DNA from: Bacteroidetes bacterium 2013_40CM_41_45
Lineage (GTDB): Bacteria; Bacteroidota; Bacteroidia; AKYH767-A; 2013-40CM-41-45
Length of the DNA stretch: 64,000 nucleotides
Assembly (NCBI GenBank): GCA_002215675.1
Contig: NGFH01000011.1
Span: 9,007-73,006 of the forward strand
Direction of reading: 5' to 3'
Position 1 is the first letter of the stretch. Each line of letters begins with the position of its first letter. Under the pieces are notes generated by a model that saw nothing but the letters and a program-made list of their open reading frames with translations, had not been told where the DNA came from and did not search any database. Below, in pieces: positions 5,336 through 64,000 of this stretch. Position numbers and translations under genes: made by a program.

Positions 5336-7837
5336 ATGAAGTACACCATACAAGATATCGCTAAAGTTGTAAGGGGCAAACTGCACCTGCAGGACGAAGT
5401 CGCTATTGAAATCGAGCATCTTCTTACTGACAGCCGTAAAATAATTTCTCCCGGTACTTCTTTATTCTTTGCAATCATAGGTGTGCGGCATGACGGGCAC
5501 CGTTTTATTGACGAGCTTGTCCGCAGCGGAGTAAAGAATTTCGTTGTCTCTCACTATTCAGGAAAAAAATATGCTTCGTCCGGCTGCAACTTTATTGTGG
5601 TTGATGATGCGCTTGTCGCTATGCAGCGGCTTGCTGCGCATCACCGCATGCAGTTTGACATTCCCGTTATCGGTATTACGGGTAGCAACGGCAAAACCAT
5701 TATCAAAGAGTGGCTATATCTTTTGCTCCGCAACGAATACAATATTGTCCGAAGCCCAAAGAGTTATAACTCGCAGGTTGGTGTTCCGCTTTCGGTGTGG
5801 CAGATGAATGAAAACCATACGCTCGGCATTTTTGAAGCAGGTATTTCAAAAGCGGGCGAAATGGAAAAGCTTGCGACTATTATCCAACCTTTACTGGGAA
5901 TTTTTTCAAACATCGGGCAAGCGCATGACGAGAACTTTAAAGACCACTCCCGGAAAATCCTCGAGAAGCTTCGCCTGTTCTCTTCGGCAGAAAAAATTAT
6001 TTACTGTAAAGATTATTTAGAAATCGTCAATGAAATTCCGCATGCTGATTTTCTTAAAGCAGGAGTAAAGTTTTTTTCATGGTCGAAAAAATCGAAGGCA
6101 GATTTGCAGGTTACCAAAACAACACGGCAGGGAAGTGAGACCATCATACAAGCAATATATGATAACCGCTTTTGTGAGATAGCCATTCCCTTCACCGATG
6201 AAGCATCGGTAGAAAACAGTGTGCATTGCTGGGCTGTCATGCTGCACTTTGGCTATGAACAGGGTCTGATTGCCGAGCGCATGCAACTGCTGACACCTGT
6301 CGCTATGCGCCTTGAACTCAAAGAAGGTATCAACAACTGCTCGGTGATCAACGATAGCTACAATTCCGACTTAGGCTCATTGAGCATTGCACTCGACTTC
6401 CTCAACCAGCAGCAGCAGCATCCCAAAAGGACCATAATCCTTTCAGACATATTACAGAGCGGAAAAAATGAAGAGCAGTTGTATAAGGAAGTATCATCAC
6501 TGCTTAAAAGCAAAAACGTGCATCGCCTTATTGGTATCGGGGAAAGTATTTCTCGCCAGGAAAATAATTTTTCAGTCGACAAAAAGTTTTACGCCAACAC
6601 GGATGATTTTATTTCCGACTTCGCTTCACTGCGTTTCACCGATGAAACAGTGCTGCTCAAAGGCGCGCGCCCGTTCGGTTTTGAACGCATCAGCAAACTC
6701 CTCCAGCAAAAGAGCCACGAAACGGTTTTCGAAATAAACCTCAACGCCATCACCCATAACTTTAACTATTTCCGTTCGCGGCTGAAGCCGTCAACAAAAA
6801 TTATGTGCATGGTAAAGGCGTTTTCCTACGGCAGCGGCAGCTACGAGATTGCCAGCATGTTGCAGTACAATAAAGCTGACTACCTTGCCGTAGCGTATAC
6901 CGATGAAGGCGTAGAGCTGCGTAAAGCCGGAATCTCCATGCCCATCATGGTTATGAACCCGGAGCTGCAGGGCTTCGAGACCATGCTTACTTACCGCCTC
7001 GAGCCGGAGATTTACAACTTCCGTTTGCTCAACCGCCTTAGCGAAGTGCTTATTAAAATGCTGCCTGCTAAAGCTTCGTTTCCTGTTCACGTCAAGGTAG
7101 ACACCGGCATGCATCGTTTGGGCTTCAACAAGGAAGAGCTCAACGAGCTTATTGTGCGGCTCAAGAACGTAAAGCGCATCAAAGTGCAGTCCGTCTTCTC
7201 GCACCTGGTGGCAAGCGAAGATGCCGCGCAAGATGATTTTACCCAGCATCAAATTCACGAGTTCGATTTTATGTGCAAAGAAATCACGCGACAGCTTGGC
7301 TATCCGGTTACTCGGCATCTGCTCAACTCGGCAGGAAGCGTGCGTTTTGCTGAGGCGCAGTACGATATGGTGCGGCTCGGCATCGGGCTGCACGGCATTG
7401 CCGCCACGCCAGCCGAGCAAAAGCACCTGCTCAATACGGGCACGCTTAAGACCACCATTTCGCAAATCAAAAATGTGCCAGCCGGTGACAGCATCGGCTA
7501 CAACCGCATGTCCGTGGTAAAGCGTGACTCGCAGATTGCCACCGTGGCTATCGGTTATGCCGATGGGCTGGACAGGCGGCTCGGCTACGGCAAGGGAAAA
7601 ATGATGGTGATGCCTGCCGATGGTGCCGAAGGCGCGTTTGCTCCCACCATCGGAAGCATCTGCATGGACATGACCATGCTCGATGTCACCGATGTGCCCG
7701 CCCGCGAAGGCGATGAAGTCATTGTGCTGGGCGATGCCTACTCAGTCATCGACATGTCGCGCGACTTAAACACCATCCCCTACGAAATCCTCTGCAGCAT
7801 CTCGCAACGAGTGAAGCGAGTGTATTTTCATGAGTGA
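5336..7837 (+). CDS. alr: Bifunctional MurF-like ligase / alanine racemase
   Basis: N-half GITGSNGKT, INDSYN, VLLKGAR; C-half MVKAFSYGSG (PLP lysine), VDTGMHRLG, IGYADG, ICMDM. Confidence 0.93.
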   Translation: MKYTIQDIAKVVRGKLHLQDEVAIEIEHLLTDSRKIISPGTSLFFAIIGVRHDGHRFIDELVRSGVKNFVVSHYSGKKYASSGCNFIVVDDALVAMQRLAAHHRMQFDIPVIGITGSNGKTIIKEWLYLLLRNEYNIVRSPKSYNSQVGVPLSVWQMNENHTLGIFEAGISKAGEMEKLATIIQPLLGIFSNIGQAHDENFKDHSRKILEKLRLFSSAEKIIYCKDYLEIVNEIPHADFLKAGVKFFSWSKKSKADLQVTKTTRQGSETIIQAIYDNRFCEIAIPFTDEASVENSVHCWAVMLHFGYEQGLIAERMQLLTPVAMRLELKEGINNCSVINDSYNSDLGSLSIALDFLNQQQQHPKRTIILSDILQSGKNEEQLYKEVSSLLKSKNVHRLIGIGESISRQENNFSVDKKFYANTDDFISDFASLRFTDETVLLKGARPFGFERISKLLQQKSHETVFEINLNAITHNFNYFRSRLKPSTKIMCMVKAFSYGSGSYEIASMLQYNKADYLAVAYTDEGVELRKAGISMPIMVMNPELQGFETMLTYRLEPEIYNFRLLNRLSEVLIKMLPAKASFPVHVKVDTGMHRLGFNKEELNELIVRLKNVKRIKVQSVFSHLVASEDAAQDDFTQHQIHEFDFMCKEITRQLGYPVTRHLLNSAGSVRFAEAQYDMVRLGIGLHGIAATPAEQKHLLNTGTLKTTISQIKNVPAGDSIGYNRMSVVKRDSQIATVAIGYADGLDRRLGYGKGKMMVMPADGAEGAFAPTIGSICMDMTMLDVTDVPAREGDEVIVLGDAYSVIDMSRDLNTIPYEILCSISQRVKRVYFHE

Positions 7838-49781: not shown

Positions 49782-52700
49782 ATGAAACATTTTCTGTTAA
49801 TTGCTTTCTCTGTATTTACATTGAACAATTTGATTTTTGCTCAACAAGGCGATGAACAACCATTTTTGCAGGACTATTCATCTCAAGTCAAAAGCGATGA
49901 TGTTGATGGCATTGACCTTAGTACAGGTACCGTGAATCCAGGTATTCCTTTGTTGTCTGTTAAACTGAACAGCGAGTATTCTGAAAACATTTCCCTTAAT
50001 TATACCAAGGGACAAGGTATAAGAGTTTACGACTTTTCAGGTGTTGCTGGATTGGGATGGGACATTAAAGCGGGAGGAGTCCTTACCAGGGAAGTAAGAG
50101 GATATACGAGAGATGAAAAAATACCTATGCAAAATCCGTTAGCTGGGGATGTTGACAAGGATTGCGGATGGCTTTATAATCCTTCTGACGTACCAGATTA
50201 TAACGCGGACTACAGTTTGTTGGGAACTACAGCGGGACAGGCCGTTGAAGGTTCGTACATGTTGAACCCTTCTGACCCGAATGATGTACCTGATGCTTCA
50301 GATGTGCTCAGACAATTTTTTAGCGGCATATACAATAATGGAAACATTCATCATTATGCCAATATTGATTCCGAACCTGATATATTTCATTTTTCATTTG
50401 GGAATTATTCGGGTAAATTCGTTTTTGATCCTAGTGGAACTCCCGTTTTAATCCCCGCGCAGGATATTAAAATTGAACCGGCAATTGGTCCTAACGGATC
50501 GTCATATAACGGAACTCCTGCTTGGATTTTTACAACACCTGATGGCCAAAAGTATGTGTTCTATAATACTGATGATTACAGAGAGAAAACAACAACGAAG
50601 CGGTTTGCAAGCACGAATTTTTGTTATCCTAATCAAACACCTAAAAGAACGTTAGAATATTATTCGACCTGGCATCTGTCAAAAATTATCGACACGCACG
50701 GTAAAGAAATGACTTTTACTTATGGCACTGGATACACCTTTAAGGTTACTCAAGCCCAGCAAAATAAGTATGATTGGATTACAGGCAACAAATATTTAGG
50801 ACCCCATGCTTCTGCTCATCCTGAGGAAGATGTTGATGTGCCTGCTTCAAATGTACCGGAATTGAATATTACAACAGTTAAGTTGCTGACCCTTATTACT
50901 ACTGATGCAGAAAATCTCACATTCGTCTATTCAAATGACAGAATAGATTTAGCTGCTCCTAAATTAACAAATATTGATGAGACCGGAGGCATGAACAAGC
51001 ATTATCAATTTAATTACACTTATGAGTTTAATGATTGCGGTCCTAATCATGACCAAATCTGCCCGCCTCAAGACCCTGGCAGTAGTCCGGAAAATTATTT
51101 TGTTTATCGCCCTTATCAATATTTAAAGCTGGCATCACTTGAAGAAATTCCAACCAGCGCGCAATCATCAAATCCGACTTGGAGTTTTGAATACAAGCCC
51201 TTTAATGAATATACAATTTGGCATTCACAGCAGACCCCGCAAAGATATTGGTATTGCAGATGTTATAGTAATAATCTTGTACGTAACACTCGCAATTTGG
51301 GAGAAGATTACTGGGGATTTTTTAAAGGCCTTCATTGGTATATTTCTCCAGGCTCTCAATCATATGGAGATGAGGTTTGCATTACTGAGATCGGACCTGC
51401 AGGGCAATTAATTCCACCCGGACCGAGTGGCTCAGGATTAGACGGAACGAACAGAAATCCAGATGAAGAGGAATTCCGAATTTATACTTGGGATGGCTCT
51501 ACCTACATTTGGGCAAGCAACCAGATTAATTCTTCAAATGAAGATTCGTATACCCTTTCCAGGACGCCATACAATCAGCAAGGCATTTTAACAAAGATAA
51601 CTTTACCGACCGGAGGTGTAATTGATTATGAATATGAAACTAATACCTATTATGACAATTCCTCTTCTACCAGCAAAACATTTGGAGGACTTAGAGTAAA
51701 ACGAATTAAAACTTCTACCTCGGCTCAGGATTCTCCCATCATAAAGGAATTTAAATATACTACGGAAACCGATCCTAACAAATCAAGCGGAGAGGTTGTC
51801 CCTTTGAGGAGAAATTGGGATAATGTGATATTCTGCAAACATTATGACGATACTCATATTTCTAATTCATACTCAACGTATTATTTCCGCGAGTCGCAAT
51901 CTCACCGAGCACAGCCGAGAGACCTGATTCGTTATACCAGAGTAGAAGTCGTAACCATTGGAACGAATAGTACCGGCAACGGAAAAGTCGTCTATAAAAT
52001 GACAGGATATTCTTCCAATCCCGATGTGCCATGCGACAGGTTTGAATTTAACCATATTAATACCGCTGTGACACCGCCCCAGGTATGCAGCTGGACATCT
52101 TACACGGATGACAGGGATAATGATGCAGGAGCTCCGAATGGTGATATGAGTTTCGAGCGCGGGTTAATCACAAAGATTGAATTCTACAACCAGGCACAGG
52201 AAAAAATCAAGGAAATTGAAAATGAGTATGAATTTGCCCCTTCAAACTTTACTCCTGTAGAGGTTAAAGCCTGCAAGGTAAATACAAAATTTATTTACAA
52301 CTCAATTTATAGTGGGTCAACCCCGTTAAATTGGTCCTTCGACCCTCCTCCCTTCAATGTTGAATATTATAAACATATTTCTAAATGGTTTTATCTGAAA
52401 AAAACCACAGAGCGCAATTATTCAATGGACGCTGATGCAAGCATTAATGCGAATAATTTTCTGACACTTCAAACCAATTATTTTTATGACAATTCAGTGC
52501 ATAAGCTGGTGACCCGGATAGAAAAAATAAATTCGGATAATAAAAAAACGATTATTCAGTATAAATATCCACAGGATTTTAATGTTGCTTACAATACCCA
52601 AAATGATGTAATGTCTTCATGCCTTTGGCTACTGGTGAACAGGCATATTCATAACATTCCTGTTGCTACTCATGTTTTCAAGGAACTTGTCAGTTCAACC

Positions 52701-55700
52701 ACTTGCAATAATCTGTACAGCAGTAAGTTTACAATTTTAAAGCAACTATCTGGCAGCATTATAGTGCCATTTAAAGATTACATACTTGAGACCGCTGATG
52801 CAGTTGATGTTGGTGCAACGTCATTTGTATTACCTCATGCTCCGATGACAACCGCATATAATTTTGTTTTTGATAACAAATATAAATCTAAAGTGGAATA
52901 TGATTACGATGCCCTGGGATATTTAACCAGTTCCAAAATTACTAATGGAATGTCATCGTCTGTAATTACAGACGCTAATCATAATCATGTACTGGCCAAA
53001 TTTTCAAACGCAAAGTATTCAGCGTCCGAAGTCGGAAATGAGTGTAGCTTTTTAAGTTTTGAAAGCGGCTCAAATAGTGACCAGTGGGGTTTAAGCGCTA
53101 CTTCAAATAGCACCGACGCTCATACAGGAAGTGTTTCCAGATTGCAGGCAGGAGGTGTCACATTTGGCCCAACGAAAGATTTTCGTCCGGATAATCAGTA
53201 TCAAAAATATAAATTCTCGTGTTGGATTAAAACCAGTGCCAACTATCCTTCGAGTGGAGGGAAATTAATAATTCATTCAAAGCATGATGATAATAATCAG
53301 ACTGCATATCCTAATGTAACCGGAAACTGGATAGAAGTTCCTTTTGGGAATACAAATAACAAATGGAAATATTTTGAAGCTGTTATTGACTTAGGAGCGG
53401 TAAGGAATCTTGCAAACATGGCTACCACTGACCCTGCACTTCGGATTCGCTGCTATACAGTTAATGATAATGCTACTAACTCATTCCTTATTGATGACAT
53501 TAGATTTCAACCTGTATTATCTTCCTGTATCAGCTACACATACAATGATTTTTACAAAACAAGCGAGAGCGATAATAACAGCCTACCGACTTATATAGAA
53601 TACGATGCCTTCAACAGGCCCGCATGGGTATACGATCAGGACAGAAACATTATCAAGCACTTCGACTATGGTGTCGGTACTTCCCTTACTTCTAATTATT
53701 CTATAACCGATAATATTTTAGTTGCCGGAGCTTCCGCGAGCAGCATCCTGAACCAATCATTAACTCCGCAACAGTGTCGCAGAACAACTACATACGCTGA
53801 TGGATTAGGGCGGCCATTACAGACTATTGCTAAGCAGCAGTCTCCCGGATTATATGATATCGTGTCACCACATGCTTATGATGAATTCGGAAGAGAATCA
53901 AAAAAATATCTCTCTTATGTAGATGCAAGCTATGATGGTTTGTTTAAAACAAACGTCCTTTCTAATCAAGCATACTTTTACCAGAATGCTTATGCTGTGG
54001 AACATACTACATCTGCATTCACACAGGCCATTTATGAAGCATCTCCGCTCAACAGAATTTTAAAACAGGGGAATGTTGGTTCCACCTGGCAACCAAACTC
54101 CAGTTACACGACATCCGATCATGCTCTAAAATTCAGATATCAGACTAATGACGAAAATGAGGTGTTAAAGTGGGGCATTAGCGGAAATAATATATCCGCA
54201 ATAAATATAGTATCGCTTATTCCTTATGTCTGGACCCCAATATTTTATCCCGCTAATACTCTATTTAAAACTGTAAGTTATGATGAGAATGGAACAGAAT
54301 CAATTGAGTATAAGGATTTGGAGGGAAAATTAATTTGTAAAAAAACTAAAGTTGCTTCGAGCGTAAATGCTTCGGGAGAAAGAATAACATTTGATTTTAC
54401 AGGCCCACAAAATACCAATGCTAATCCCCCTTCTCTTCCAAATGAATACTATTCTTCATATTATGTGTACGATGGATTTGGCCGTTTGATTTATGAAATA
54501 TCTCCGGCAACCATTCATCTTCTGTCGCAAAATAATTATGGGTATTTCTTTTCTACCGACTTTATTATGTTCCCCAGTGCAGAGCCATTTTTTAATCAAA
54601 ATCTTTATGCTTATAAATACGATGCCCGTGGCAGGTTGATTGAAAAGAAAATTCCGGGACAAACAGAATGGAATTATTTTGTTTATAACAAAATCGATCA
54701 ACTTGTTTTGTCCCAGACTCCTAAGCAAAATTCAGATCTTGAATGGACTTTTTCAAAATATGATGCCCTGGGAAGGGTTGTAATGACAGGTACCTATAAC
54801 AACGGTGATCCAAGAGAGAACATTCAGGCATCCGTGGATAATGAAACTATATTGTGGGAAGAGAGAAGCAATGGCAACGGAAATATTCTGGGCTATACCG
54901 ATAATACTTTCCCACAGAGTATGATTGAACAGCTTACCGTAAATTATTATGATGACTACGATTTTGATATTCAGAGTAGGACGTATGAGACTGATTTCAC
55001 AGGTGTTGCGGCTACGGTGCGTACTTTTGGATTGCTTACGGGAAACCTTACTAAAATTATTATGTCACCATCGGATGAACATCTTCTCCGTGTGAATTAT
55101 TATGATAGCCGAGACAGGTTAATACAACAACATAAGCAACAGGTTAACCAATCCTTGGACAGGATCAGTAATCTGTATGACTTTGCAGGGCAGTTGCTTT
55201 CATCCAAACGCACATACTCTCATTCTAACAGTGACCCTAAAGTTATTATTTCCAACACTTTTTCGTATGACCATGCCGGCAGAAGGGTTAATACCTACCT
55301 GAAAGTAGATGATGACCCGCAATACGTCATGTCTAATCGAAACTATAATGCTCTTGGACAGCTCATTCAGAAAAATCTTCATTTCGATCCGCAAACCGGA
55401 GATTATATGCAAAGCATTGACTATCGTTATAACATTCGTGGATGGTTAACAAAAATTAACAACGCGGCATGCTATGAAGATTTTGATGACAATTTCGGCA
55501 ATGATGTATTTGGTGAGGAACTATATTATGATGACATAACAAACATCAGCATTTCCAATTCTTCATGCCCGGTTCCGGTTCCGCAATTCAACGGCAACAT
55601 TTCTGCAATGAAGTGGAAAGCCAAAGGGTTGGAGTCAGAGCCGTATGACATCAATCAAAATATGTATGTCTATCGTTATGATAATTTAAACAGGATGACA

Positions 55701-58115
55701 GCCGGCTATTATGTCGCTTCGAGCCCGAATTTTCTGAACCAGGATATTTTTGACAGGCAGATTAATTATTTTAATGAAGTAGTTACGTATGGCGCTTCGG
55801 GAAATATTATGCATCTCACACGTAATGGAGGAGATCCGGAAACCCAGTCGTATGATGTAATGGATGACCTGTCATATACGTATGCCGGCTACCAGGCGCA
55901 GAAAGTGGAGGATGCGGCAACTCCTCAGCTAAGCTATGCCGGGTTTACGGATGGAAGCAACGGAGGGGACGATTATACTTATGATGCCAGCGGTAATTTG
56001 ACCAATGACGCTAATAAAGATTTAACCGTGAATTATAACTCGCTGAATTTACCGTACTCTGAAGAGAGTTTTGCCTCCGGAGATTACATTACCAGTACCT
56101 ATGATGCCGGCGGGCGAAAAATTCACCAGGAACTTTTGACCAGCACGGCTGTACTTAATAACTTTCCGCCTGTTGTAACAGATTATGTAGACGGAATTGA
56201 ATATGAAGATAATCAGCTGAAGCAAATTATGACAGAAGAAGGACGCGTGCGTCCATCTACTGCTGCCGATGCAATACAGGGATATAAGTACGATTACTTT
56301 TTGAAAGACCATCTCGGAAGCGTGCGGGCAGTTCTTTCTCACGATGCTTTAGTGAGACAATATTACGCTACGATGGAAACGCAAAATGCGCAGGCCGAAG
56401 AAGCGTTATTTTATAACATTCCCACAACGCGTTCAAGTGCTCCTGCAGGCTATCCACCTGATTTTTCATATTCACCAAACTTAAAAGTGAGTGGGTTAAA
56501 TGCAGCCCAGGGCAAAACAATAGGGCATGCAAAAGTTCTAAGGATACTGGTGGGAGACAGTCTTAGCATAAGCGCCAAATATTTTTTCACAGATTCCCTC
56601 ACTTCTACTTCAAGCACCAGGACGCTGAGCGATATCCTTACCCAGTTAGGCAATATATTTCTCATCAATCCATCGGTAAGCGTTGCAGGGAATGAGATAA
56701 CTGCGAGGCAGCAGTGGGCAAGCTCTACCTTTACGGAGAATTCTGATGTTACAAGTTTTCTTTCTTCTACATTTACAAATGCAAGCAGTGCCAGCCCTCA
56801 TACTCCCCAGGCATATCTTATTTGGTTATTTTATACCGATGATTTTACATTTGTTCCCTCTATGAGCGGAATAAAACAAGTAGAGGCTGCTTCGCGAAAC
56901 CAGCTTGGCAACCTTGCCATATCAAATCTGGTTGCACAGGAAAAAGGGTATTGCTATATTTATGTTGCTAACGAAAGCGCTGTGACGGTTGATTTTGATA
57001 ACCTTAGCATTATTCAATCGGCAAGCCATTTGGTTGAGATAAACGACTATTACCCTTACGGGTTATTAAACCCCTGGCTCTCTGTAACGCCCGATGTTTC
57101 CATAGCAAACAACCGCAAGTTCCAGGGCAAGCAATTAATATCTGATGTAAATACCAGTTCAGATGAATTTGGCTGGCGGCAATATGACCCCTTGGTTGCA
57201 AGATGGCATGCTACCGACCCGGCAGAGCAGTTTGCAAATCCTTATCTTGCAATGGGGAATACGCCAACATCATTCGTGGATTATGATGGAGCGCAGGGAG
57301 GTTCTGGCGGTACTAGTGGCACTACTGATTTGGAGCACAGTGGATATTCTTATGGTTCAGCATCGGATTTGGGTTATAATAGTGGGTATGATATGTATAT
57401 GGCTATGCATTATGGTGGGGGTTGGGGTAGTGGTTACATGACATCGTCTGGAGGTACTGGATTGGGTATAGGAGCTGATGGGAAGGGTGTGACCTTTACC
57501 CGCTATGGCGTTACCTCCGGAGATGGTACGGTATATGGCACATGGGATGCTGAAACAGCTTCTAAAATTGATGGTGCGCTGGCAAATTTTGCTTTGTTTA
57601 GGGATTATAATTACCAGATTGCTCAATTTCCTACAACAGGAGAAGCGGCAGCGAATGCTGATTCATATTCGGGAAATAGATATAGGACTGGAGAAGGGGC
57701 TACTGTTTCAGCAAATCAATCATGGGCACATTCATTAAGTGAGATTGGTTTTGGTATGCGCTTAACAGGTGATTTATATGGTTATGCAGCCAGGGGATTA
57801 AATGCAGCGACAATGAGAGCGATTTTTAATGTCGCTCGTGGGGTTACTGGTGCAGGAGTTGTTGCTGGTGCTGTGTCTGGTATTATACCTGTAGTCACGA
57901 ACCCGTCATCATTAGGTAGCTGGGCAAGAGCTAGTGTTCAAATAGGAGCCATGGGGCTCACCGGAGTTCCCTATGTTGGTATTGGGCTTGCAGTAGGCGT
58001 AGAAGTTGCCAATGAAGCAGGAATGTTTGGCCTTTATAATTGGGCTGATCAATATAGAATTGCTGCACCCTCTCCATTTAATCCAAACTTTGCCGTTTAC
58101 CACGTGCACCATTAA
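49782..58115 (+). CDS. Rhs/YD-repeat polymorphic toxin (DUF6443 region, Rhs core, hydrophobic C-terminal toxin)
   Basis: Signal peptide; YADGLGRPLQT..YDEFGRE; YD repeats; KDHLGSVR; DYYPYG; RQYDP..RW..DP..NPY..GN.P..VDYDG. Confidence 0.93.
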   Translation: MKHFLLIAFSVFTLNNLIFAQQGDEQPFLQDYSSQVKSDDVDGIDLSTGTVNPGIPLLSVKLNSEYSENISLNYTKGQGIRVYDFSGVAGLGWDIKAGGVLTREVRGYTRDEKIPMQNPLAGDVDKDCGWLYNPSDVPDYNADYSLLGTTAGQAVEGSYMLNPSDPNDVPDASDVLRQFFSGIYNNGNIHHYANIDSEPDIFHFSFGNYSGKFVFDPSGTPVLIPAQDIKIEPAIGPNGSSYNGTPAWIFTTPDGQKYVFYNTDDYREKTTTKRFASTNFCYPNQTPKRTLEYYSTWHLSKIIDTHGKEMTFTYGTGYTFKVTQAQQNKYDWITGNKYLGPHASAHPEEDVDVPASNVPELNITTVKLLTLITTDAENLTFVYSNDRIDLAAPKLTNIDETGGMNKHYQFNYTYEFNDCGPNHDQICPPQDPGSSPENYFVYRPYQYLKLASLEEIPTSAQSSNPTWSFEYKPFNEYTIWHSQQTPQRYWYCRCYSNNLVRNTRNLGEDYWGFFKGLHWYISPGSQSYGDEVCITEIGPAGQLIPPGPSGSGLDGTNRNPDEEEFRIYTWDGSTYIWASNQINSSNEDSYTLSRTPYNQQGILTKITLPTGGVIDYEYETNTYYDNSSSTSKTFGGLRVKRIKTSTSAQDSPIIKEFKYTTETDPNKSSGEVVPLRRNWDNVIFCKHYDDTHISNSYSTYYFRESQSHRAQPRDLIRYTRVEVVTIGTNSTGNGKVVYKMTGYSSNPDVPCDRFEFNHINTAVTPPQVCSWTSYTDDRDNDAGAPNGDMSFERGLITKIEFYNQAQEKIKEIENEYEFAPSNFTPVEVKACKVNTKFIYNSIYSGSTPLNWSFDPPPFNVEYYKHISKWFYLKKTTERNYSMDADASINANNFLTLQTNYFYDNSVHKLVTRIEKINSDNKKTIIQYKYPQDFNVAYNTQNDVMSSCLWLLVNRHIHNIPVATHVFKELVSSTTCNNLYSSKFTILKQLSGSIIVPFKDYILETADAVDVGATSFVLPHAPMTTAYNFVFDNKYKSKVEYDYDALGYLTSSKITNGMSSSVITDANHNHVLAKFSNAKYSASEVGNECSFLSFESGSNSDQWGLSATSNSTDAHTGSVSRLQAGGVTFGPTKDFRPDNQYQKYKFSCWIKTSANYPSSGGKLIIHSKHDDNNQTAYPNVTGNWIEVPFGNTNNKWKYFEAVIDLGAVRNLANMATTDPALRIRCYTVNDNATNSFLIDDIRFQPVLSSCISYTYNDFYKTSESDNNSLPTYIEYDAFNRPAWVYDQDRNIIKHFDYGVGTSLTSNYSITDNILVAGASASSILNQSLTPQQCRRTTTYADGLGRPLQTIAKQQSPGLYDIVSPHAYDEFGRESKKYLSYVDASYDGLFKTNVLSNQAYFYQNAYAVEHTTSAFTQAIYEASPLNRILKQGNVGSTWQPNSSYTTSDHALKFRYQTNDENEVLKWGISGNNISAINIVSLIPYVWTPIFYPANTLFKTVSYDENGTESIEYKDLEGKLICKKTKVASSVNASGERITFDFTGPQNTNANPPSLPNEYYSSYYVYDGFGRLIYEISPATIHLLSQNNYGYFFSTDFIMFPSAEPFFNQNLYAYKYDARGRLIEKKIPGQTEWNYFVYNKIDQLVLSQTPKQNSDLEWTFSKYDALGRVVMTGTYNNGDPRENIQASVDNETILWEERSNGNGNILGYTDNTFPQSMIEQLTVNYYDDYDFDIQSRTYETDFTGVAATVRTFGLLTGNLTKIIMSPSDEHLLRVNYYDSRDRLIQQHKQQVNQSLDRISNLYDFAGQLLSSKRTYSHSNSDPKVIISNTFSYDHAGRRVNTYLKVDDDPQYVMSNRNYNALGQLIQKNLHFDPQTGDYMQSIDYRYNIRGWLTKINNAACYEDFDDNFGNDVFGEELYYDDITNISISNSSCPVPVPQFNGNISAMKWKAKGLESEPYDINQNMYVYRYDNLNRMTAGYYVASSPNFLNQDIFDRQINYFNEVVTYGASGNIMHLTRNGGDPETQSYDVMDDLSYTYAGYQAQKVEDAATPQLSYAGFTDGSNGGDDYTYDASGNLTNDANKDLTVNYNSLNLPYSEESFASGDYITSTYDAGGRKIHQELLTSTAVLNNFPPVVTDYVDGIEYEDNQLKQIMTEEGRVRPSTAADAIQGYKYDYFLKDHLGSVRAVLSHDALVRQYYATMETQNAQAEEALFYNIPTTRSSAPAGYPPDFSYSPNLKVSGLNAAQGKTIGHAKVLRILVGDSLSISAKYFFTDSLTSTSSTRTLSDILTQLGNIFLINPSVSVAGNEITARQQWASSTFTENSDVTSFLSSTFTNASSASPHTPQAYLIWLFYTDDFTFVPSMSGIKQVEAASRNQLGNLAISNLVAQEKGYCYIYVANESAVTVDFDNLSIIQSASHLVEINDYYPYGLLNPWLSVTPDVSIANNRKFQGKQLISDVNTSSDEFGWRQYDPLVARWHATDPAEQFANPYLAMGNTPTSFVDYDGAQGGSGGTSGTTDLEHSGYSYGSASDLGYNSGYDMYMAMHYGGGWGSGYMTSSGGTGLGIGADGKGVTFTRYGVTSGDGTVYGTWDAETASKIDGALANFALFRDYNYQIAQFPTTGEAAANADSYSGNRYRTGEGATVSANQSWAHSLSEIGFGMRLTGDLYGYAARGLNAATMRAIFNVARGVTGAGVVAGAVSGIIPVVTNPSSLGSWARASVQIGAMGLTGVPYVGIGLAVGVEVANEAGMFGLYNWADQYRIAAPSPFNPNFAVYHVHH

Positions 58116-58125
58116 AATTAAAAGT

Positions 58126-58515
58126 ATGATAGATTATATATACTATAAGTTTTACAAATTTTATAATCGAAATGAAGGTCAAATAGTAGGTGCGATAATG
58201 GCAATGGCGATATGTGGTGGGTTGGCTAGTGTCAACCTTATAACGGTAATAGTCTTTTTGCAAGCCATTAAAGTATTGCCAATTTTTGATATTACAAAAT
58301 TTTTCGCCATTATAACGACCTTGTTCTTTTTCTTATTAGGATATTTTGTTTTCCTCAGAAAAAAGAAGTACATTGAAATTGCCAACAGATTTAAAAATGA
58401 GACATTCCTTGAAAGGCAAGACGGGCGTACCAAAGTGTTGCTGTATGTTTTTGCATCGGGTATTGCTTTTGTTTTGGCGGCAGTTTTTAGGTATAATGTA
58501 GTTCATCCATATTAA
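58126..58515 (+). CDS. Putative membrane immunity protein of the main Rhs toxin
   Basis: Small 3-TM protein starting 10 bp after the toxin stop; paralogue of 61273..61665. Confidence 0.75.
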   Translation: MIDYIYYKFYKFYNRNEGQIVGAIMAMAICGGLASVNLITVIVFLQAIKVLPIFDITKFFAIITTLFFFLLGYFVFLRKKKYIEIANRFKNETFLERQDGRTKVLLYVFASGIAFVLAAVFRYNVVHPY

Positions 58516-58547
58516 ATATGATAGCTAAAATTAATTCTCATAAACAT

Positions 58548-58578
58548 AAAAGCCCGATAAAAAAATCGGGCTTTTTAA
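58548..58578 (+). terminator. Intrinsic terminator after the immunity gene
   Basis: AAAAGCCCGAT-AAAAAA-ATCGGGCTTTT. Confidence 0.7.
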
Positions 58579-58595
58579 TAGGCAATTTATCAATT

Positions 58596-59567
58596 ATGAT
58601 TACAGATGTGAATACCAGTTCAGACGAATTTGGATGGAGGCAATATGACCCGTTGATTGCAAGATGGCATGCTACCGACCCGGCAGAGCAATTTGCAAAT
58701 CCTTATCTTGCTATGGGAAATTCTCCAACATCATTCGTGGATTATGATGGAGCGCAGGGAGGTTCTGGCGGTACTAGTGGCACTACTGATTTGGAGCACA
58801 GTGGATATTCTTATGGTTCAGCATCGGATTTGGGTTATAATAGTGGGTATGATATGTATATGGCTATGCATTATGGTGGGGGTTGGGGTAGTGGTTACAT
58901 GACATCGTCTGGAGGCACTGGATTGGGTATAGGAGCTGATGGGAAAGGTGTGACATTTACTCGATATGGTGTTACTTCAGGAGACGGTACAGAATATAGT
59001 ACATGGGATGTAAATACTGCCCAGGATATTAAAGCTGCACTCACAGATTATGCGATGCAGTCAGGAAATTATGGTTATTCGTTACCACCCGTTTCTATAG
59101 AAGATTTAAGAATCAATCCCGGAGCCACACAGCAATGGGCTTATGATAATATTCCGGAATATGCTGGAAATAGTAGCCAGTGTCCAAATTGTTTAGATCC
59201 GGCGACTGTGAATAGGAATTGGCTTCATAGCTATATGGGACCTAACAATCCTCTAACCTATTCTAGAAGACCAGACTATTCAACGCCTCCAGTTACTCTG
59301 TCAGAAATACCAGCAATTGTACATGATAAATATTATGATTCACATAATGCCGCCGGATCAATGGATGTATTACTTAATCAGGCAGTTATTTCAGCTGATT
59401 GGAGATTTGTCGGATCGGAGTTAAGTTTGGCAATAAATCCATTTTTAGATATGAGTACGCGCTTGGAGGGATTTGCTTCCGGAGCGGTTCTTGGGACAGT
59501 TGCATTACCGAAAACTATATATAATTTCAGTACTATAAATGCGCGAATACGATATCACAAATATTAA
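58596..59567 (+). CDS. Orphan Rhs-CT cassette 1, phospholipase A2-like tip
   Basis: Near-identical copy of core/linker 57143-57550, then YMGPNNP..PV..IVHDKYYD..ADWRF. Confidence 0.78.
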   Translation: MITDVNTSSDEFGWRQYDPLIARWHATDPAEQFANPYLAMGNSPTSFVDYDGAQGGSGGTSGTTDLEHSGYSYGSASDLGYNSGYDMYMAMHYGGGWGSGYMTSSGGTGLGIGADGKGVTFTRYGVTSGDGTEYSTWDVNTAQDIKAALTDYAMQSGNYGYSLPPVSIEDLRINPGATQQWAYDNIPEYAGNSSQCPNCLDPATVNRNWLHSYMGPNNPLTYSRRPDYSTPPVTLSEIPAIVHDKYYDSHNAAGSMDVLLNQAVISADWRFVGSELSLAINPFLDMSTRLEGFASGAVLGTVALPKTIYNFSTINARIRYHKY

Positions 59568-59598
59568 CAGTATTTATAACGAATCAGATATAAGCTAA

Positions 59599-60066
59599 AT
59601 GTCAAAAAAAGGGAAAATACTTTTAGTGGTTATTGCTATTACCTTAGTATTTATCATAGTTAGGTTCGCTGGCATGATTGCCCCGGGAAGTTATCCATAC
59701 GCTGAAAGGTATGAGATAGAAATGCCGGAGGACTCATTGATACAATTGATAGAAACATTTAAAAGTGAAAATCCGGAGTATATTGTTCCACCTGAGGCGC
59801 AGCTTAAAGACGGAAGAAGTGGCGATTCCGATTATTGGTATCATATTTATTTTTATTACAGAGAAAAAAATCAAATCGTACATACATGGGTAAGAGCATC
59901 AGAGAAGCATTCAACTACTTTTGCATTTGATGCCGTTAATGATGGTTTGGTTCTTGGCAGATGGAAAACAGTTAACGATGACTTTGGCTTTTTTGAAAAT
60001 AGAAAAGTGAAAAAAGAGTTTGAAGATCGTATTTTAGAAAATGTGAAACGAATTAGTGTTAAATAA
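59599..60066 (+). CDS. Putative immunity protein of cassette 1 (N-terminal anchor)
   Basis: Follows the orphan CT; one TM/signal segment plus soluble domain. Confidence 0.7.
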   Translation: MSKKGKILLVVIAITLVFIIVRFAGMIAPGSYPYAERYEIEMPEDSLIQLIETFKSENPEYIVPPEAQLKDGRSGDSDYWYHIYFYYREKNQIVHTWVRASEKHSTTFAFDAVNDGLVLGRWKTVNDDFGFFENRKVKKEFEDRILENVKRISVK

Positions 60067-60070
60067 ATTC

Positions 60071-60165
60071 GGTAACGTATCAATCTATCACCTGATGAGA
60101 ATTTGAAATAAAAAGAGAGAAGATGAAAAGCGGACGGTAAAAATACTGTCCGCTTTGTTTTTTAC
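60071..60165 (+). repeat. IS1-type left-end module, copy 1
   Basis: GGTAACGTATCAATCTATCACCTGATGAGAATTTGAAATAAAAA plus AAAGCGGAC..GTCCGCTTT hairpin. Confidence 0.7.
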
Positions 60166-60213
60166 TTTTATAAGCAATTTAAATTAATTGATATTTTTTA
60201 CCACTATAATTCC

Positions 60214-61269
60214 ATGACCAACAACTGCAAGTTCCAGGGCAAGCGGCTCATAGCAGATGTGAATACCAGTTCAGATGAATTTGGCTGGCGGCAATATGAC
60301 CCCTTGGTTGGACGGTGGCATGCTACCGACCCGGCAGAGCAGTTTGCAAATCCTTATCTTGCAATGGGGAATACGCCAACATCATTCGTGGATTATGATG
60401 GAGCGCAGGGAGGTTCTGGCGGTACTAGTGGCACTACTGATTTGGAGCACAGTGGATATTCTTATGGTTCAGCATCGGATTTGGGTTATAATAGTGGGTA
60501 TGATATGTATATGGCTATGCATTATGGTGGGGGTTGGGGTAGTGGGTACATGACATCATACGGAGGATTTGCACCTCAAATTGCAGATGCAATTAATGGC
60601 GGTGGAACCGGCTGGAACATTAATCACTTACTAATGGAAGCTGGTGGAGATGCTGCGTTTTTTGATAATCCTAGCTCCGTGACTGGTGTAAGTATGAATG
60701 GCAATTCTATGATTATCTCTACAAGAGATTACTCAGTGGGTGACCTTGGATATAAACAAGGATATAGTCTGGTTGGAGATGGTAATTATTACGAATCCGA
60801 AATGGGAGGAGTATGTATGGCAGGAAGAGAGCATAACATTTCAGTTAATATAGGCAATATTAGCTTGGGCGATATTGGGTATTCCCTTGCTAACATAGGT
60901 TTTGGTATGCGTTTGACAGCTGACTTATATGGTAATGCCGCTAAAGGACTGGAAGCATCAAGAATAATCGCTGCAATTGGTACTGGAGCTACTTATGTTG
61001 GATACGCAGGAGTAGTTTTAGGGGCAGGAGCAGCTGTAATGGAAGTTGCAAATGATCCGTATTCTTTGGATAGTTACGCAAGGGCAGGTGTTCAGGTAGG
61101 AGCGTTAGCTGTGGCTCCAGTTCCATACGTTGGAATTGGCCTTTCAATAGGTATAGAGGTTGCACATGCTGCAGGGGCATTTGACGGGTTCTATAATTGG
61201 GCTGGTCAATATAGCGTCTCTTATCCATCTCCCATTCTAGGTTGGGCTGTGTACCATAAACACAAATAA
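60214..61269 (+). CDS. Orphan Rhs-CT cassette 2, paralogue of the main toxin tip
   Basis: Core copy up to GSGYMTS, then IGFGMRLT.DLYG..VPYVGIGL..YNWA shared with the main CT. Confidence 0.82.
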   Translation: MTNNCKFQGKRLIADVNTSSDEFGWRQYDPLVGRWHATDPAEQFANPYLAMGNTPTSFVDYDGAQGGSGGTSGTTDLEHSGYSYGSASDLGYNSGYDMYMAMHYGGGWGSGYMTSYGGFAPQIADAINGGGTGWNINHLLMEAGGDAAFFDNPSSVTGVSMNGNSMIISTRDYSVGDLGYKQGYSLVGDGNYYESEMGGVCMAGREHNISVNIGNISLGDIGYSLANIGFGMRLTADLYGNAAKGLEASRIIAAIGTGATYVGYAGVVLGAGAAVMEVANDPYSLDSYARAGVQVGALAVAPVPYVGIGLSIGIEVAHAAGAFDGFYNWAGQYSVSYPSPILGWAVYHKHK

Positions 61270-61272
61270 GCT

Positions 61273-61665
61273 ATGATTGATTATTTATTTTATAGGATAC
61301 ATAAAATTTTTTATAGTGCTCATGGTCAAACAAGAGGTGCTGTATTGGCAATGATGACCTTTTGCCTTATAATTTTTATTAACCTGTTAACGATATTGAA
61401 TTTTCTTGAAGCTTTTCGGATTTTGCCGGTTTTAGGTTTAGCTAAGTACCATGCGTACGTCATTGTCCTTTTCTTGTTCATTCCAGGGTATTTTGTTTTT
61501 ATTAGAAAGAAAAGATACGTTGAAATTGAAAACAGATTTAAAACTGAAAGCCATAGAGACAAGGAAGACGGGCGTAGTAAAGTGATGATATATATTCTTG
61601 TATCAGGAATCGCTTTTTTTATAGCAGCGGTGTTAAGGTATAATGTGATTCATCATCGTTTGTAG
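61273..61665 (+). CDS. Putative membrane immunity protein of cassette 2
   Basis: Paralogue of 58126..58515 (MIDY..GYFVF.RKK.Y.EI.NRFK.E..DGR.KV). Confidence 0.78.
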   Translation: MIDYLFYRIHKIFYSAHGQTRGAVLAMMTFCLIIFINLLTILNFLEAFRILPVLGLAKYHAYVIVLFLFIPGYFVFIRKKRYVEIENRFKTESHRDKEDGRSKVMIYILVSGIAFFIAAVLRYNVIHHRL

Positions 61666-61731
61666 ATTATTACGGAGCAAAGGGAGGAAACGGCGGCGCC
61701 TATAATAATAGTTATACAGATGGAGGCTCTT

Positions 61732-61840
61732 GGTAATGTATCAATCTATCACCTGATGAGAATTTGAAATAAAAAAGGAGAAAAAATTATCGAAATATGA
61801 AGAAGCGGATGACAAATATGTTGTCCGCTTTTTTTTTACT
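61732..61840 (+). repeat. IS1-type left-end module, copy 2
   Basis: GGTAATGTATCAATCTATCACCTGATGAGAATTTGAAATAAAAAAGG plus AAGCGGATGACA..TGTTGTCCGCTT hairpin. Confidence 0.72.
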
Positions 61841-61887
61841 TTTATAAGCTATTTAAATTAATTGATATTTTTTACCACTATATTTCC

Positions 61888-62090
61888 ATGGCAAACAACC
61901 GCAAGTTCAAGAGCAAGCGGCTTATAGCAGATGTGAATACCAGTTCAGATGAATTTGGCTGGCGGCAATATGACCCCTTGGTTGCAAGATGGCATGCTAC
62001 CGACCCTGCAGAGCAATTTGCAAATCCTTATCTTGCTATGGGAAATTCTCCAACATCATTCGTGGATTATGATGGAGCGCAGGGAGGTTC
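61888..62090 (+). pseudogene. Orphan Rhs core copy truncated by an IS end
   Basis: Core to VDYDGAQGGS, then an abrupt junction to GGTAATG at 62091. Confidence 0.8.
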
Positions 62091-62917
62091 GGTAATGTTT
62101 CAATCTGTCACCTGATGAGAATTTGAAATAAAAAAGGAGAAAAAATTCTTGAAATGCAAAGAAGCGGATGACAAATATGTTGTCCGTTTTTGTTTTGTAC
62201 GTTTATACGTCATCTAACTCATTGAAAATTTCTTTTATGTTTCAAAGTATCACCCATGCCATGCAGCAATGTAAATATTGCGAAGCGGAATGTGTTAAAA
62301 AAGGATTTCAGAAAAATGGAAATCAAAAATTGCGATGCGTAAGATGCAAAAGATACCAGCTTGCCCATTATACAAATAGGGCCTGGCTGAATAATGTGAA
62401 TGAGACCATCTCTACTCTTGTAAAAGAAAGCTGCGGTATCAGAAGCATCGGGCGAATTCTAAAAATTAGTCCGGCAACAGTGATAAAAAGAATCAAAATA
62501 ATTGCTGCTTCCATTGGGAAACCCGTAATTTCCCTGGGAAAGAAATATGAGTTGGATGAGATGAGAACGTTCGTGCGAAAAAAGACAAATACTTATTGGA
62601 TAGCATACGCGATAGAAAAAGGTACTAAAAGTATTATCGATTTTAAAGTCGGAAGAAGAACATTGAAAACGCTGGGAAGCGTTGTAGATACGCTGAAGTT
62701 GGCAAAGGCAGAAAGAATTTATACAGATTCACTCAATTTATACCATTCCCTGATAAGAAAAGAAATTCATTGCAAAAGAAGATTTACAATCAATCATATT
62801 GAGCGAATGAATCTAACATTACGCACGCATTTAAAGCGATTAAACCGCAGAACCATATGTTATTCTCGCAATGCACTGATGCTCGAAGCGTGCCTGAAAA
62901 TTTATTTCTGGAGTTAA
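62091..62917 (+). mobile_element. IS1-family element: left end plus transposase; right IR not found
   Basis: Begins GGTAATG, like IS1 termini; leads into an InsAB-type ORF. Confidence 0.72.
62261..62917 (+). CDS. IS1-family transposase (single in-frame InsAB)
   Basis: CKYC..KG..CVRC zinc finger; GIRSIGRILKIS HTH; ELDEM, YTD, NHIERMNLTLR..LKRL.RRT DDE motifs. Confidence 0.9.
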   Translation: MQQCKYCEAECVKKGFQKNGNQKLRCVRCKRYQLAHYTNRAWLNNVNETISTLVKESCGIRSIGRILKISPATVIKRIKIIAASIGKPVISLGKKYELDEMRTFVRKKTNTYWIAYAIEKGTKSIIDFKVGRRTLKTLGSVVDTLKLAKAERIYTDSLNLYHSLIRKEIHCKRRFTINHIERMNLTLRTHLKRLNRRTICYSRNALMLEACLKIYFWS

Positions 62918-63118
62918 AGTTTCCTTATTTTAGGACTTGTCATTTCCAATTTAAGAAAGGGGCTTGGGAAAAAGTATTTTCCCCGCAAGATTGCGTGTGG
63001 TGGTACAGTGTACAGACCACACGCAATCTTGCTGTACGGTTATCCCTTTTGTTTGGGCTGCAACTATGCAGGGCAGAAAAGCATCTTTTAATTGTAACAT
63101 TCCACTAAACAAAATGTG

Positions 63119-64000
63119 ATGAATAAAAGCATTTACACTTACCCAATAAGAATTCTGGCGTTATTAAGTTTTATTATCGTATTTCCGGCTGTTGTTAACG
63201 CTCAGTGGAGTGTGCCTGTCAACCTTTCTCCTAATGCTGTTTCAGCGGGATTAAATGAAAGCATGGGTTCCTGCATTGGCGTTAGCGGTGATACGGTTCA
63301 TGTTGTTTGGGGCGACCGCTTCAACACAACGCATGGCGCAATCTATTACACACACACTCTTGATTCGGGCTTTACATGGAGTGTTCCCGTTGCTATTTCA
63401 GATACAAACGGCAATGCTTGGAATGCTGCAATAGCTGTCAATGGTTCTAACGTGCATGTTGTCTGGAGAGAAATTGATACGCTGAACAATCATCGCTCCT
63501 CGCATTACATCCATTCTTTAGACGGAGGAAACACATGGGGAACAAGCATGACCATTGATTCCGTTGTTGCTGACTGGCCCGCTGTTACAGTGTCGGGCAA
63601 CCATGTTTATGTTGCTAATGATATTGTTACTTCCGCTGTTCCTTACAACACCGAAATATTTTTCCTGAGGTCTTTAGATAATGGCGCAACATGGAGCCCG
63701 CATCAGCAGATAACTTTTGCTTCAGGTCGTTCGGAAGATGAAGCTATCAATGCTGAAGGTTCTCATATATTCATGTCGTGGAATGATAACCGGAGCGGGC
63801 AGATGCAAATCTTCTATAAACATTCCGGAGATTACGGAGCAACATGGGACCCGGAGGTTGCGGTAATTCCTCCCAGTGGTTATGGCACGATGGTAAGTGT
63901 TGACAATGCAAGCATTGACGTAATAGCGGCTGGCGCTCCTTCAGGTCATTATCAAATACTTTTAGCGCAGTCGACTGACACAGGTGCAAGTTGGAGTACG
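63119..64000 (+). CDS. Secreted BNR/Asp-box (sialidase-like beta-propeller) protein, runs off the window
   Basis: MNKSIYTYPIRILALLSFIIVFPAVVNAQW signal peptide; repeated S.D.G.TW (LDSGFTW, SLDGGNTW, SLDNGATW, STDTGASW) with VHVVW. Confidence 0.85.
   Translation, partial: MNKSIYTYPIRILALLSFIIVFPAVVNAQWSVPVNLSPNAVSAGLNESMGSCIGVSGDTVHVVWGDRFNTTHGAIYYTHTLDSGFTWSVPVAISDTNGNAWNAAIAVNGSNVHVVWREIDTLNNHRSSHYIHSLDGGNTWGTSMTIDSVVADWPAVTVSGNHVYVANDIVTSAVPYNTEIFFLRSLDNGATWSPHQQITFASGRSEDEAINAEGSHIFMSWNDNRSGQMQIFYKHSGDYGATWDPEVAVIPPSGYGTMVSVDNASIDVIAAGAPSGHYQILLAQSTDTGASWST

Follow-up and report, generated by a model that had tools for sequence, protein, structure and literature searches.

In this work we analyzed a stretch of 64,000 nucleotides (hereafter, the window) of Bacteroidetes bacterium 2013_40CM_41_45 (assembly GCA_002215675.1, contig NGFH01000011.1, positions 9,007 to 73,006 of the forward strand), which carries an array of Rhs toxin cassettes together with one gene for an IS1-family transposase. 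The main finding is an IS1 lineage that is associated with Rhs loci, has atypical ends, and punctuates arrays of orphan cassettes with its left ends; we are quite confident of this description. Judging from the sequences compared, the later cassette boundaries of the window were apparently made by left-end modules, and a single intact element closes the array. The lineage as a whole seems to reside mainly at Rhs toxin-immunity loci and to be effectively one-ended. The complete proposal, which joins the anatomy of the element and its association with Rhs loci to an inferred mechanism, is in our estimation evenly balanced between right and wrong.

Left-end modules and the element that closes the array

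The module begins at positions 60071, 61732 and 62091 of the window, always on the plus strand, as a first-pass annotation of this DNA had proposed and as repeat search and alignment confirmed. A DNA search of the whole host genome (3.38 Mb, 99.5% complete) found it nowhere else. The 18-letter core of the module, with up to three mismatches allowed, gave four matches where 0.09 were expected, all of them on the plus strand. The fourth is a sub-copy at 62237, which lies before the transposase ATG, as had been noticed, and in direct orientation. The length of about 100 bp given to the module in that annotation was too short: the copies align over about 145-165 bp, ending at a common CCATG where an open reading frame (ORF) starts. 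Copy 1 (60071..60213), an IS1 left end without transposase, starts 4 bp past the stop codon of the immunity gene of orphan 1 and presents an end repeat (60071-60092), a terminator-like hairpin (60127-60156) with a T run, and a leader that reaches the ATG of orphan 2. Copy 2 (61732..61887), with its terminator-like hairpin at 61799-61834, shares 92% identity with copy 3 along 106 bp. Copy 3 starts directly after the GAQGGS codons of a 67-codon Rhs stub, thereby cutting the Rhs core, and runs into an intact single-frame transposase ORF (62261-62917), in agreement with the earlier description. On the plus strand of 58000-63200 the only terminator-like hairpins are these three, one per module. The claim that both copies 1 and 2 precede orphan cassettes stands for copy 1, which leads into the full orphan cassette 2 (60214-61269) and its immunity gene; copy 2 is followed only by the 67-codon stub. 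The idea that these two copies are "mini-elements" that kept a right end was discarded, as their 3' parts matched the 3' end of the transposase gene with z scores of just 0.1 and 0.6. For copies in L042 and L047 the same idea is upheld. An Rfam scan of 57000-63400 gave no match at the gathering score, and the weak matches corresponded to the terminator hairpins.

The array itself is, as far as sequence comparison can tell, an Rhs/YD polymorphic-toxin locus made of a main gene, three 5'-truncated orphans and candidate immunity genes, all on the plus strand, and it is the one Rhs locus of this type in the whole host genome. The main Rhs/YD-repeat toxin gene (49782..58115) encodes a predicted protein of 2777 amino acids with DUF6443, RHS_repeat and TIGR03696 (Rhs_assc_core) matches, the last one at residues 2423-2503 with 37.2 bits against a cut-off of 32.5. 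Its conserved core end lies at about 57048-57290, and its C-terminal toxin part begins at about 57300. This core end occurs four times on the plus strand, 96-98% identical over 300 nt, with the fourth copy cut short, and in the orphans a 5'-truncated core end continues into a differing C-terminal part, with a small ORF behind it. Downstream of the main gene there is its putative immunity gene (58126..58515), encoding a membrane-like product of 129 amino acids. Next comes orphan cassette 1 (58596..59567), an ORF of the repeat family that joins a truncated core end to a different toxin part, and its putative immunity gene (59599..60066; 155 amino acids, no family match). Orphan cassette 2 (60214..61269; 351 amino acids) opens with a core end whose first position corresponds to 57094 in the main gene, and its toxin part and that of the main gene are related. 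Its putative immunity gene (61273..61665; 130 amino acids) is homologous to 58126-58515, with about 75% nucleotide identity. It is followed by a 66-bp scrap (61666..61731) of a different Rhs core end and linker (DYYGAKGGNGG...GGSW), which is cut by module copy 2 and takes its stop codon, TAA, from the first letters of that module. The stub of orphan 3 (61888..62090) retains 67 codons of core end and is cut five codons past the conserved D-x-D-G motif. The C-terminal parts of all three predicted toxins had no Pfam match, and the immunity candidates at 58126-58515 and 61273-61665 matched NF053699 (Bfi1 family immunity) weakly, with 29 and 37.5 bits against a cut-off of 100. The toxin parts paired with these two candidates have in common a glycine-rich, membrane-like C-terminal stretch.

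The intact IS1-family element occupies 62091..62911 on the plus strand, its right boundary being taken from the comparison with 37 related loci. It consists of an outer repeat (62091-62112), a terminator-like hairpin (62160-62191), an inner direct repeat (62233-62254) and the transposase ORF (62261-62917). This is the single IS1-family transposase gene of the host genome; it is intact and in one continuous frame, not in two overlapping frames with a -1 frameshift. Single-ORF members of the IS1 family exist. The protein matches NF033558 along the whole profile (positions 1-199 of 199) with 143.1 bits, the cut-off being 100, and PF03400 with an E value of 1.6e-20. Relatives were collected in two sets, namely 39 transposase loci from a scan of species-representative genomes and 64 further loci from a scan of metagenome contigs. 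Over both sets identity to the window protein is 37-59%, and near-full-length matches of the first set are 42-56% identical. All 39 genome loci belong to Bacteroidota, with representatives in Chitinophagaceae, Sphingobacteriaceae, Cyclobacteriaceae, Flammeovirgaceae and others. The zinc-finger cysteines C5, C8, C27 and C30 are kept in the 23 intact proteins compared, as are D100 and E182, and D157 is kept in 22 of them; these three acidic residues would form the catalytic triad. By these features the protein looks like a working DDE transposase.

The members of the lineage have a leader of the same plan. An outer repeat, beginning GGTA(A/G)TG, stands 156-206 bp ahead of the start codon; after it comes a G+C-rich hairpin with a T run, and a nearly identical inner repeat lies 10-29 bp before the start. 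Both repeats are in direct orientation, typically about 154 bp apart. The pair with a hairpin between was found in at least 22 loci, and of the 47 full-length metagenome loci, 23 have the strict end motif at -158 to -206. Outer and inner repeats are alike within one element and different between elements. At the other side, conserved sequence stops at the TGG of ...KIYFW (62909-62911 in the window), with the last codon and the stop lying beyond. In the 37 related loci as well as in the window, sequences are unrelated straight after ...ACLKIYFW TGG, and the ORFs run on for 0-37 residues to a chance stop. Two copies that are 92% identical (L032 and L034) begin to diverge right after that TGG, and two contigs (L031 and L034) begin exactly at GGTAGTG.

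No right end that mirrors the left one could be recognized. Seed-and-extend comparison between flanks found no terminal inverted repeats in 29 loci plus the window, local alignment against shuffled sequences found no right-end copy of the repeat, direct or inverted, in any of 16 loci (all z scores at most 2.5), and a position-weight-matrix scan of both strands found no right inverted repeat. The observation that no inverted end follows the transposase stop codon was thus upheld by three search methods. Target duplications of 8-9 bp, whose search had been suggested together with that of a right inverted repeat, were equally absent from the flanks of 13 loci compared by eye. The element therefore fails the two end features of the IS1 family, inverted repeats at both ends and an 8-9 bp target duplication. 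Since no right end could be recognized across the relatives compared, the one-ended appearance is a property of the whole lineage, and the interpretation of the modules as IS1-type left ends with one recognizable element end holds lineage-wide.

Some candidates for a right end were tried and rejected. Two picked by eye in the window, at about 63093-63108 and 62912-62924, were no better than chance. Hints of a third direct copy past the right boundary were obtained in L015 (z score 3.6), in L031/L032 and at about 62942 of the window, but the matrix gave them no general support. In Cyclobacteriaceae, four loci (L025:6694-6787, L016:~2150-2290, L040:~6720-6860 and L030:~6700-6800) have in common an element of about 90 bp, located 45-90 bp past the right boundary and absent from the window. 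The L025 copy matches the Rfam Flavo-1 RNA motif (RF01705) with 37.5 bits, where the gathering score is 42. The shared sequence might be a repeat beside which the IS1-family element lands, or it might belong to that element in this subclade.

Association of the lineage with Rhs cassettes

The wider survey was made with a profile built from the core end of the window. Rhs core ends were found in 24 of the 39 genome loci and in 31 of the 64 metagenome loci, and they lie on the strand of the transposase in 68 of 68 cases, with none opposite. When only loci with 4 kb or more available upstream are considered, an Rhs end is present in 19 of 25 genome loci and 21 of 28 metagenome loci (40 of 53 in total). 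From the nearest upstream core end to the transposase start the median distance is 1528 bp in the genomes and 1484 bp in the metagenomes, mostly 1.2-1.9 kb; a spacing of about 1.5 kb corresponds to one toxin part plus one immunity gene. Most commonly the element stands behind a single cassette, rather than behind an array. Every subclade of the transposase tree contains copies linked to Rhs, and unlinked copies are nested among them. The association with Rhs cassette boundaries thus recurs in many other Bacteroidota. Confinement of module and transposase to Rhs arrays is a different matter: it holds in the host genome, where the module lies only there, and it does not hold for all the relatives.

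Among five genomes searched whole, four have one copy and one has three. In a complete genome of 6.5 Mb the sole copy stands 1.6 kb after the last orphan of a five-member array, and not at the solitary Rhs genes. By simple arithmetic, the chance of such a position, within 3 kb downstream of any of the nine core ends and on the right strand, is about 0.2%. In another genome (G045), two of three copies are each located behind a different Rhs gene. In 16 of 24 primary cases and in 11 of 14 solo cases, the left end directly adjoins an ORF of the same direction or cuts it short, and at six junctions (L011, L012, L015, L017, L038 and L045) an upstream ORF of 174-527 codons stops at a TAG or TAA inside GGTA(A/G)TG. 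Extra end motifs within about 2 kb of the transposase were 13 on the plus strand and 0 on the minus strand in the 39 genome loci; within 2.5 kb in the 47 full-length metagenome loci they were 6 and 2, respectively. The exact 29-letter module pattern had no match in metagenome contigs.

Left-end modules that lack a transposase and stand ahead of orphan cassettes are present in at least three genomes beyond that of the window. Joints of this kind lend the picture first proposed its strongest support. One of these genomes is G042, whose intact element (L021) is located at rplT and which has six further module copies. Four of them, 78-87% identical, are in an Rhs orphan island about 100 kb from the intact gene. 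Each of these island modules either overlaps the end of an immunity ORF or lies 3-28 bp past it, and the next orphan ORF follows after 65-177 bp. One of the orphan ORFs opens with the first four codons of the transposase fused to Rhs core sequence, and two further orphans of the island are preceded by end repeats of other sequence types. All the G042 copies begin at the same letter and extend over 50, 52, 67, 138, 193 and 200 bp, besides the full element. The common first letter with differing lengths indicates a fixed left end and a variable right end. At orphan boundaries, the end motif was found in two of three cases in the window, in five of five in the G042 island, in none of three in array 1 of G042 and in none of two in G024. 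In L015, as in the window, a complete module without transposase precedes an Rhs stub which is then cut by the intact element. In L042 and L047 there are three and more modules, 93-96% identical to one another and each 6-23 bp past an immunity ORF, and the orphans beside them are only 73% identical.

Further observations were made in G042. Locus L093 (G042:C1:2264000-2278000) is an island of five cassettes, all of them orphans, and the 3.4 kb of sequence available upstream contains no full-length Rhs gene; an IS1-type end repeat precedes every orphan, and at least three repeat sequence types are represented. Two solo modules, L080 (G042:C1:~720490) and L081 (G042:C1:~2344283), match the module of the intact element at 98-99% identity and lie 8 and 12 bp past the stop codons of homologous lipoprotein-like, immunity-like genes (271 and 235 amino acids). 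This suggests recent events at non-Rhs toxin or defense loci. Relatives share the right flank of L080 but not the left one, and for that reason no empty site could be defined. The possibility that solo modules are miniature inverted-repeat transposable elements was rejected, given that they present only one defined end and that the L042 and L047 copies have no inverted repeat.

As regards selection, dN/dS (the ratio of nonsynonymous to synonymous substitution rates) of the transposase gene was 0.05-0.09 in four non-saturated pairs; the gene, usually single-copy per genome, is under strong purifying selection. Two copies in one genome differ by a synonymous distance (dS) of 0.36, which points to old, separately maintained genes and not to fresh products of transposition. 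The element is nevertheless still mobile, because five relatives of G042 have at the same rplT site just a short spacer with a terminator, where G042 carries the element directly after the rplT stop codon. In that comparison the left joint is exact and the right joint indistinct. The partial copies of 98-99% identity at two other places in G042 add to the evidence of mobility. These results, together with the kept acidic residues and the non-Rhs sites, do not support the term "domesticated" that had been applied to the transposase.

Two features of the window lie beyond the element. A perfect 17-bp inverted repeat with a 14-nt loop (62985..63032) is located 74 bp past its right boundary and is not followed by a T run. 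Positions 63116-64000 encode a protein with a signal peptide and several S-x-D-x-G-x-T-W motifs. This protein, BNR/sialidase-like by eye, seems unrelated to the array. A Pfam search on the genes beside related elements added little.

How the joints may have arisen

The explanation that we favor is as follows. The transposase would set the left end of the element immediately behind the 3' end of a gene of the same direction, usually an immunity gene, and the right side would be joined imprecisely, either by one-ended copying or through later deletion. The terminator, leader and start codon of the element would in this way be fused to a downstream resident Rhs core remnant, which would become, or stay, an expressed orphan, so that the module both marks and expresses the cassette. 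Repeated events from several element lineages would let the array grow. IS1 is known to make adjacent deletions that start at an element end. Deletions of this kind from the left end could prune cassettes, leaving stubs cut soon after the core motif (twice in the window, and in L015 and L011), and could also erase target duplications; both the cut Rhs stubs and the missing duplications would follow from them. The modules, being direct repeats, may in addition serve as sites for RecA or for the transposase in the loss, duplication or looping-out of cassettes, and looped-out cassettes might re-enter by homologous recombination through the conserved core end. In its strongest form, the system would be a transposase-based counterpart of an integron, in which single direct left-end sites with terminator, leader and start codon act as joints for the capture, expression, pruning and reshuffling of cassettes, also at a distance from the gene. 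This last version is speculative and, in our opinion, rather unlikely.

It should be noted that several observations weigh against this explanation. The modules of the window are about 85-92% identical, vs 96-98% for the adjoining core ends, and both solo copies adjoin an Rhs core end, so the pair could be copied together by ordinary unequal recombination. Orphan 1 has no upstream module and is preceded instead by a hairpin at 58548-58575. Orphan arrays without modules exist, as in G024, which also lacks the transposase, and in array 1 of G042. In 13 of the 53 loci with at least 4 kb upstream there is no Rhs end, and the non-Rhs neighbors include a histidine kinase, a response-regulator system, thrS-infC-rpmI-rplT and an S41 peptidase. 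Stops or frameshifts interrupt 8 of 31 full-length transposase genes. A cryptic right end within the last codons is conceivable, given that two transposase-less copies in L042/L047 keep exactly the last 40 codons. The loci are partly non-independent, since some genomes are related and some metagenome contigs are duplicates of contigs from genome bins (e.g., L107 and L038), and the counts of Rhs linkage refer to this IS1-family lineage alone. Finally, nine public soil-metagenome runs contain the window stretch, none of them on record as RNA; contigs from four of these runs over 56500-63400 are identical to the window and broken at the repeats. No junction variant, circle or depth step was seen in these public contigs, which cannot reveal rare variants.

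The simplest alternative is that the modules are ordinary insertion-sequence scars. The element would have landed by chance, or by a preference for DNA that is A+T-rich, dispensable and horizontally acquired, and its left end would have spread passively with the core end by duplication, with no role in the array. IS1 prefers A+T-rich targets, and the array is A+T-rich (GC 0.37-0.41). Insertion at rplT, when compared with the five relatives, looks like normal mobility, and the non-Rhs sites, the arrays without the element and the decay of some transposase genes are all expected if the element is an ordinary one. Moreover, both solo modules of the window precede the same core-end fragment and possibly derive from one duplicated unit. 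A preference for A+T-rich DNA, however, leaves the strand bias unexplained: co-orientation is complete (68 of 68), and the tight spacing of about 1.5 kb is seen in both collections and in every subclade. The 0.2% chance figure for the 6.5-Mb genome argues against it too, as do the mostly single-copy state, the low dN/dS and the intragenomic dS, which are unlike those of a proliferating insertion sequence. Modules spread passively should not be more alike than the cassettes that they flank, as they are in L042 (93-96% against 73-88%), nor should several end-repeat sequence types meet in one orphan island. The first-pass annotation had named scattered copies with both inverted repeats, with no link between module and cassette boundaries, as the sign of ordinary scars; no such copy appeared in the 16 loci tested or the 29 scanned, and modules do stand at cassette boundaries in other genomes. 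Passive scars would thus fit the window alone and do not seem to fit the wider data; we consider this alternative unlikely, although it retains an appreciable chance of being right.

At the other extreme, the locus could be a true integron-like system, with the transposase as a dedicated recombinase for toxin-immunity cassettes, which it would excise, capture and insert again at the expressed Rhs gene. There is one recombinase gene beside an array with the same site at two of three boundaries in the window and at all five in the G042 island, where the modules would work at a distance from the gene. The sites are in direct orientation, as is nearly every extra motif, with 13 plus and 0 minus in genomes, and 6 plus and 2 minus in metagenomes. 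Repeats alike within an element and unlike between elements are what binding sites for the element's own protein might be expected to look like. An analogous recombinase-linked immunity array is described in Bacteroidales (rAID-1; 10.1101/471110). Against this, the module right ends are variable and define no second site, many arrays have no modules, and the element also inserts at housekeeping operons. The commonest arrangement, a single cassette plus element, is not an array at all. The adjacent enzyme is a DDE transposase and not a tyrosine site-specific recombinase, and to our knowledge DDE transposases are not known for conservative site-specific cassette exchange. Neither an excision product or circle nor an alternative joint was found in contigs, data that are unsuited to show them. 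"Integron-like", as the annotation had put it, stays an analogy, and a system of this kind seems to us improbable.

A third possibility is that the modules are mainly regulatory and that mobility is incidental: the terminator would insulate the upstream cassette, and promoter, leader and start codon would express the next orphan, above all its immunity gene. In IS1, InsA acts as a repressor; by analogy, the N-terminal part with zinc finger and helix-turn-helix might bind the repeats as a repressor. The inner repeat, 10-29 bp before the start codon, is placed where such a repressor would act. Every module and most related leaders have a strong terminator-like hairpin with a T run, and orphan ORFs start where the transposase starts (CCATG in the window, the first four codons in G042). 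The promoter scans, for their part, used the sigma-70 consensus, which is unfit for Bacteroidota. The arrival of the element at Rhs loci and the conservation of catalytic residues would be left unexplained by regulation alone. We regard it as quite improbable as the main role, although it is compatible with the other readings. Returning to the explanation in which left-end modules made the joints, the initial observation is confirmed and its interpretation is partly supported. The status of "domesticated" and an integron-like role, the latter drawn by analogy, go beyond the evidence.

Comparison with known systems and significance

The element resembles the IS1 family in its full-length match to the protein model, in the CxxC...CxxC finger, in the acidic residues and in the left terminus GGT-purine-purine-TG. 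It differs in having a single ORF that is open at the right boundary and two direct left ends around a terminator, and no right inverted repeat or 8-9 bp duplication was found. The single-copy state under purifying selection and the co-oriented link to Rhs are further differences. One-ended mobilization is known for ISEcp1, IS91/ISCR and Tn3-family elements, which likewise produce copies with one exact end and a variable other side. In those cases the transposase and its chemistry are unrelated to the ones considered here; in the present lineage, moreover, the variable side lies inside the element, so that the transposase is lost and neighboring genes are not carried.

Another recurrent, insertion-sequence-like resident of Rhs loci, found beside C-terminal tips and orphans, is the H-repeat (H-rpt), which belongs to the ISAs1-like transposase family. 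In Escherichia coli Rhs loci, according to one report, the C-terminal tips have been entered as insertion sequences on account of the H-repeat, with no transposition observed (PMC3032704). H-rpt differs from our element in transposase family and in phylum, and we met no report of joint modules or of a one-ended build for it. The rAID-1 immunity arrays of Bacteroidales are associated with a recombinase and have integron-like repeats (10.1101/471110). They involve a XerD-family tyrosine recombinase and immunity genes only; here we have a DDE transposase and cassettes with a toxin part plus an immunity gene. In further contrast to rAID-1 and to integrons, the repeated site is in our case one end of a transposon, and its right side varies.

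For Salmonella Rhs (PMC3967940) and for the type VI secretion system of Vibrio cholerae (PMC5361080), orphan arrays have been attributed to sequential displacement with homologous recombination. These arrays present the same order as in the window, a main gene and then 5'-truncated orphans homologous to its core end. Those models apparently need no mobile-element joint; here a transposon end supplies terminator and start codon. In open-access full texts and preprints, supplements excluded, we met no account of a link between an IS1-family element and Rhs arrays, and a term search of PMC3482391 returned no such IS1-Rhs association in the text it covered.

The acquisition, expression and exchange of orphan cassettes are usually credited to homologous recombination alone. 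Here, a conserved mobile element is located at the joints, and this condition is repeated across several families of Bacteroidota. Should the transposase be inactive on these joints, the lineage would still be an insertion sequence tied to one kind of host locus, a condition that needs explanation. If, on the contrary, the transposase does act on them, bacteria would have a new route to the diversification of their weapons, and a DDE transposase would be seen to act in a new way.

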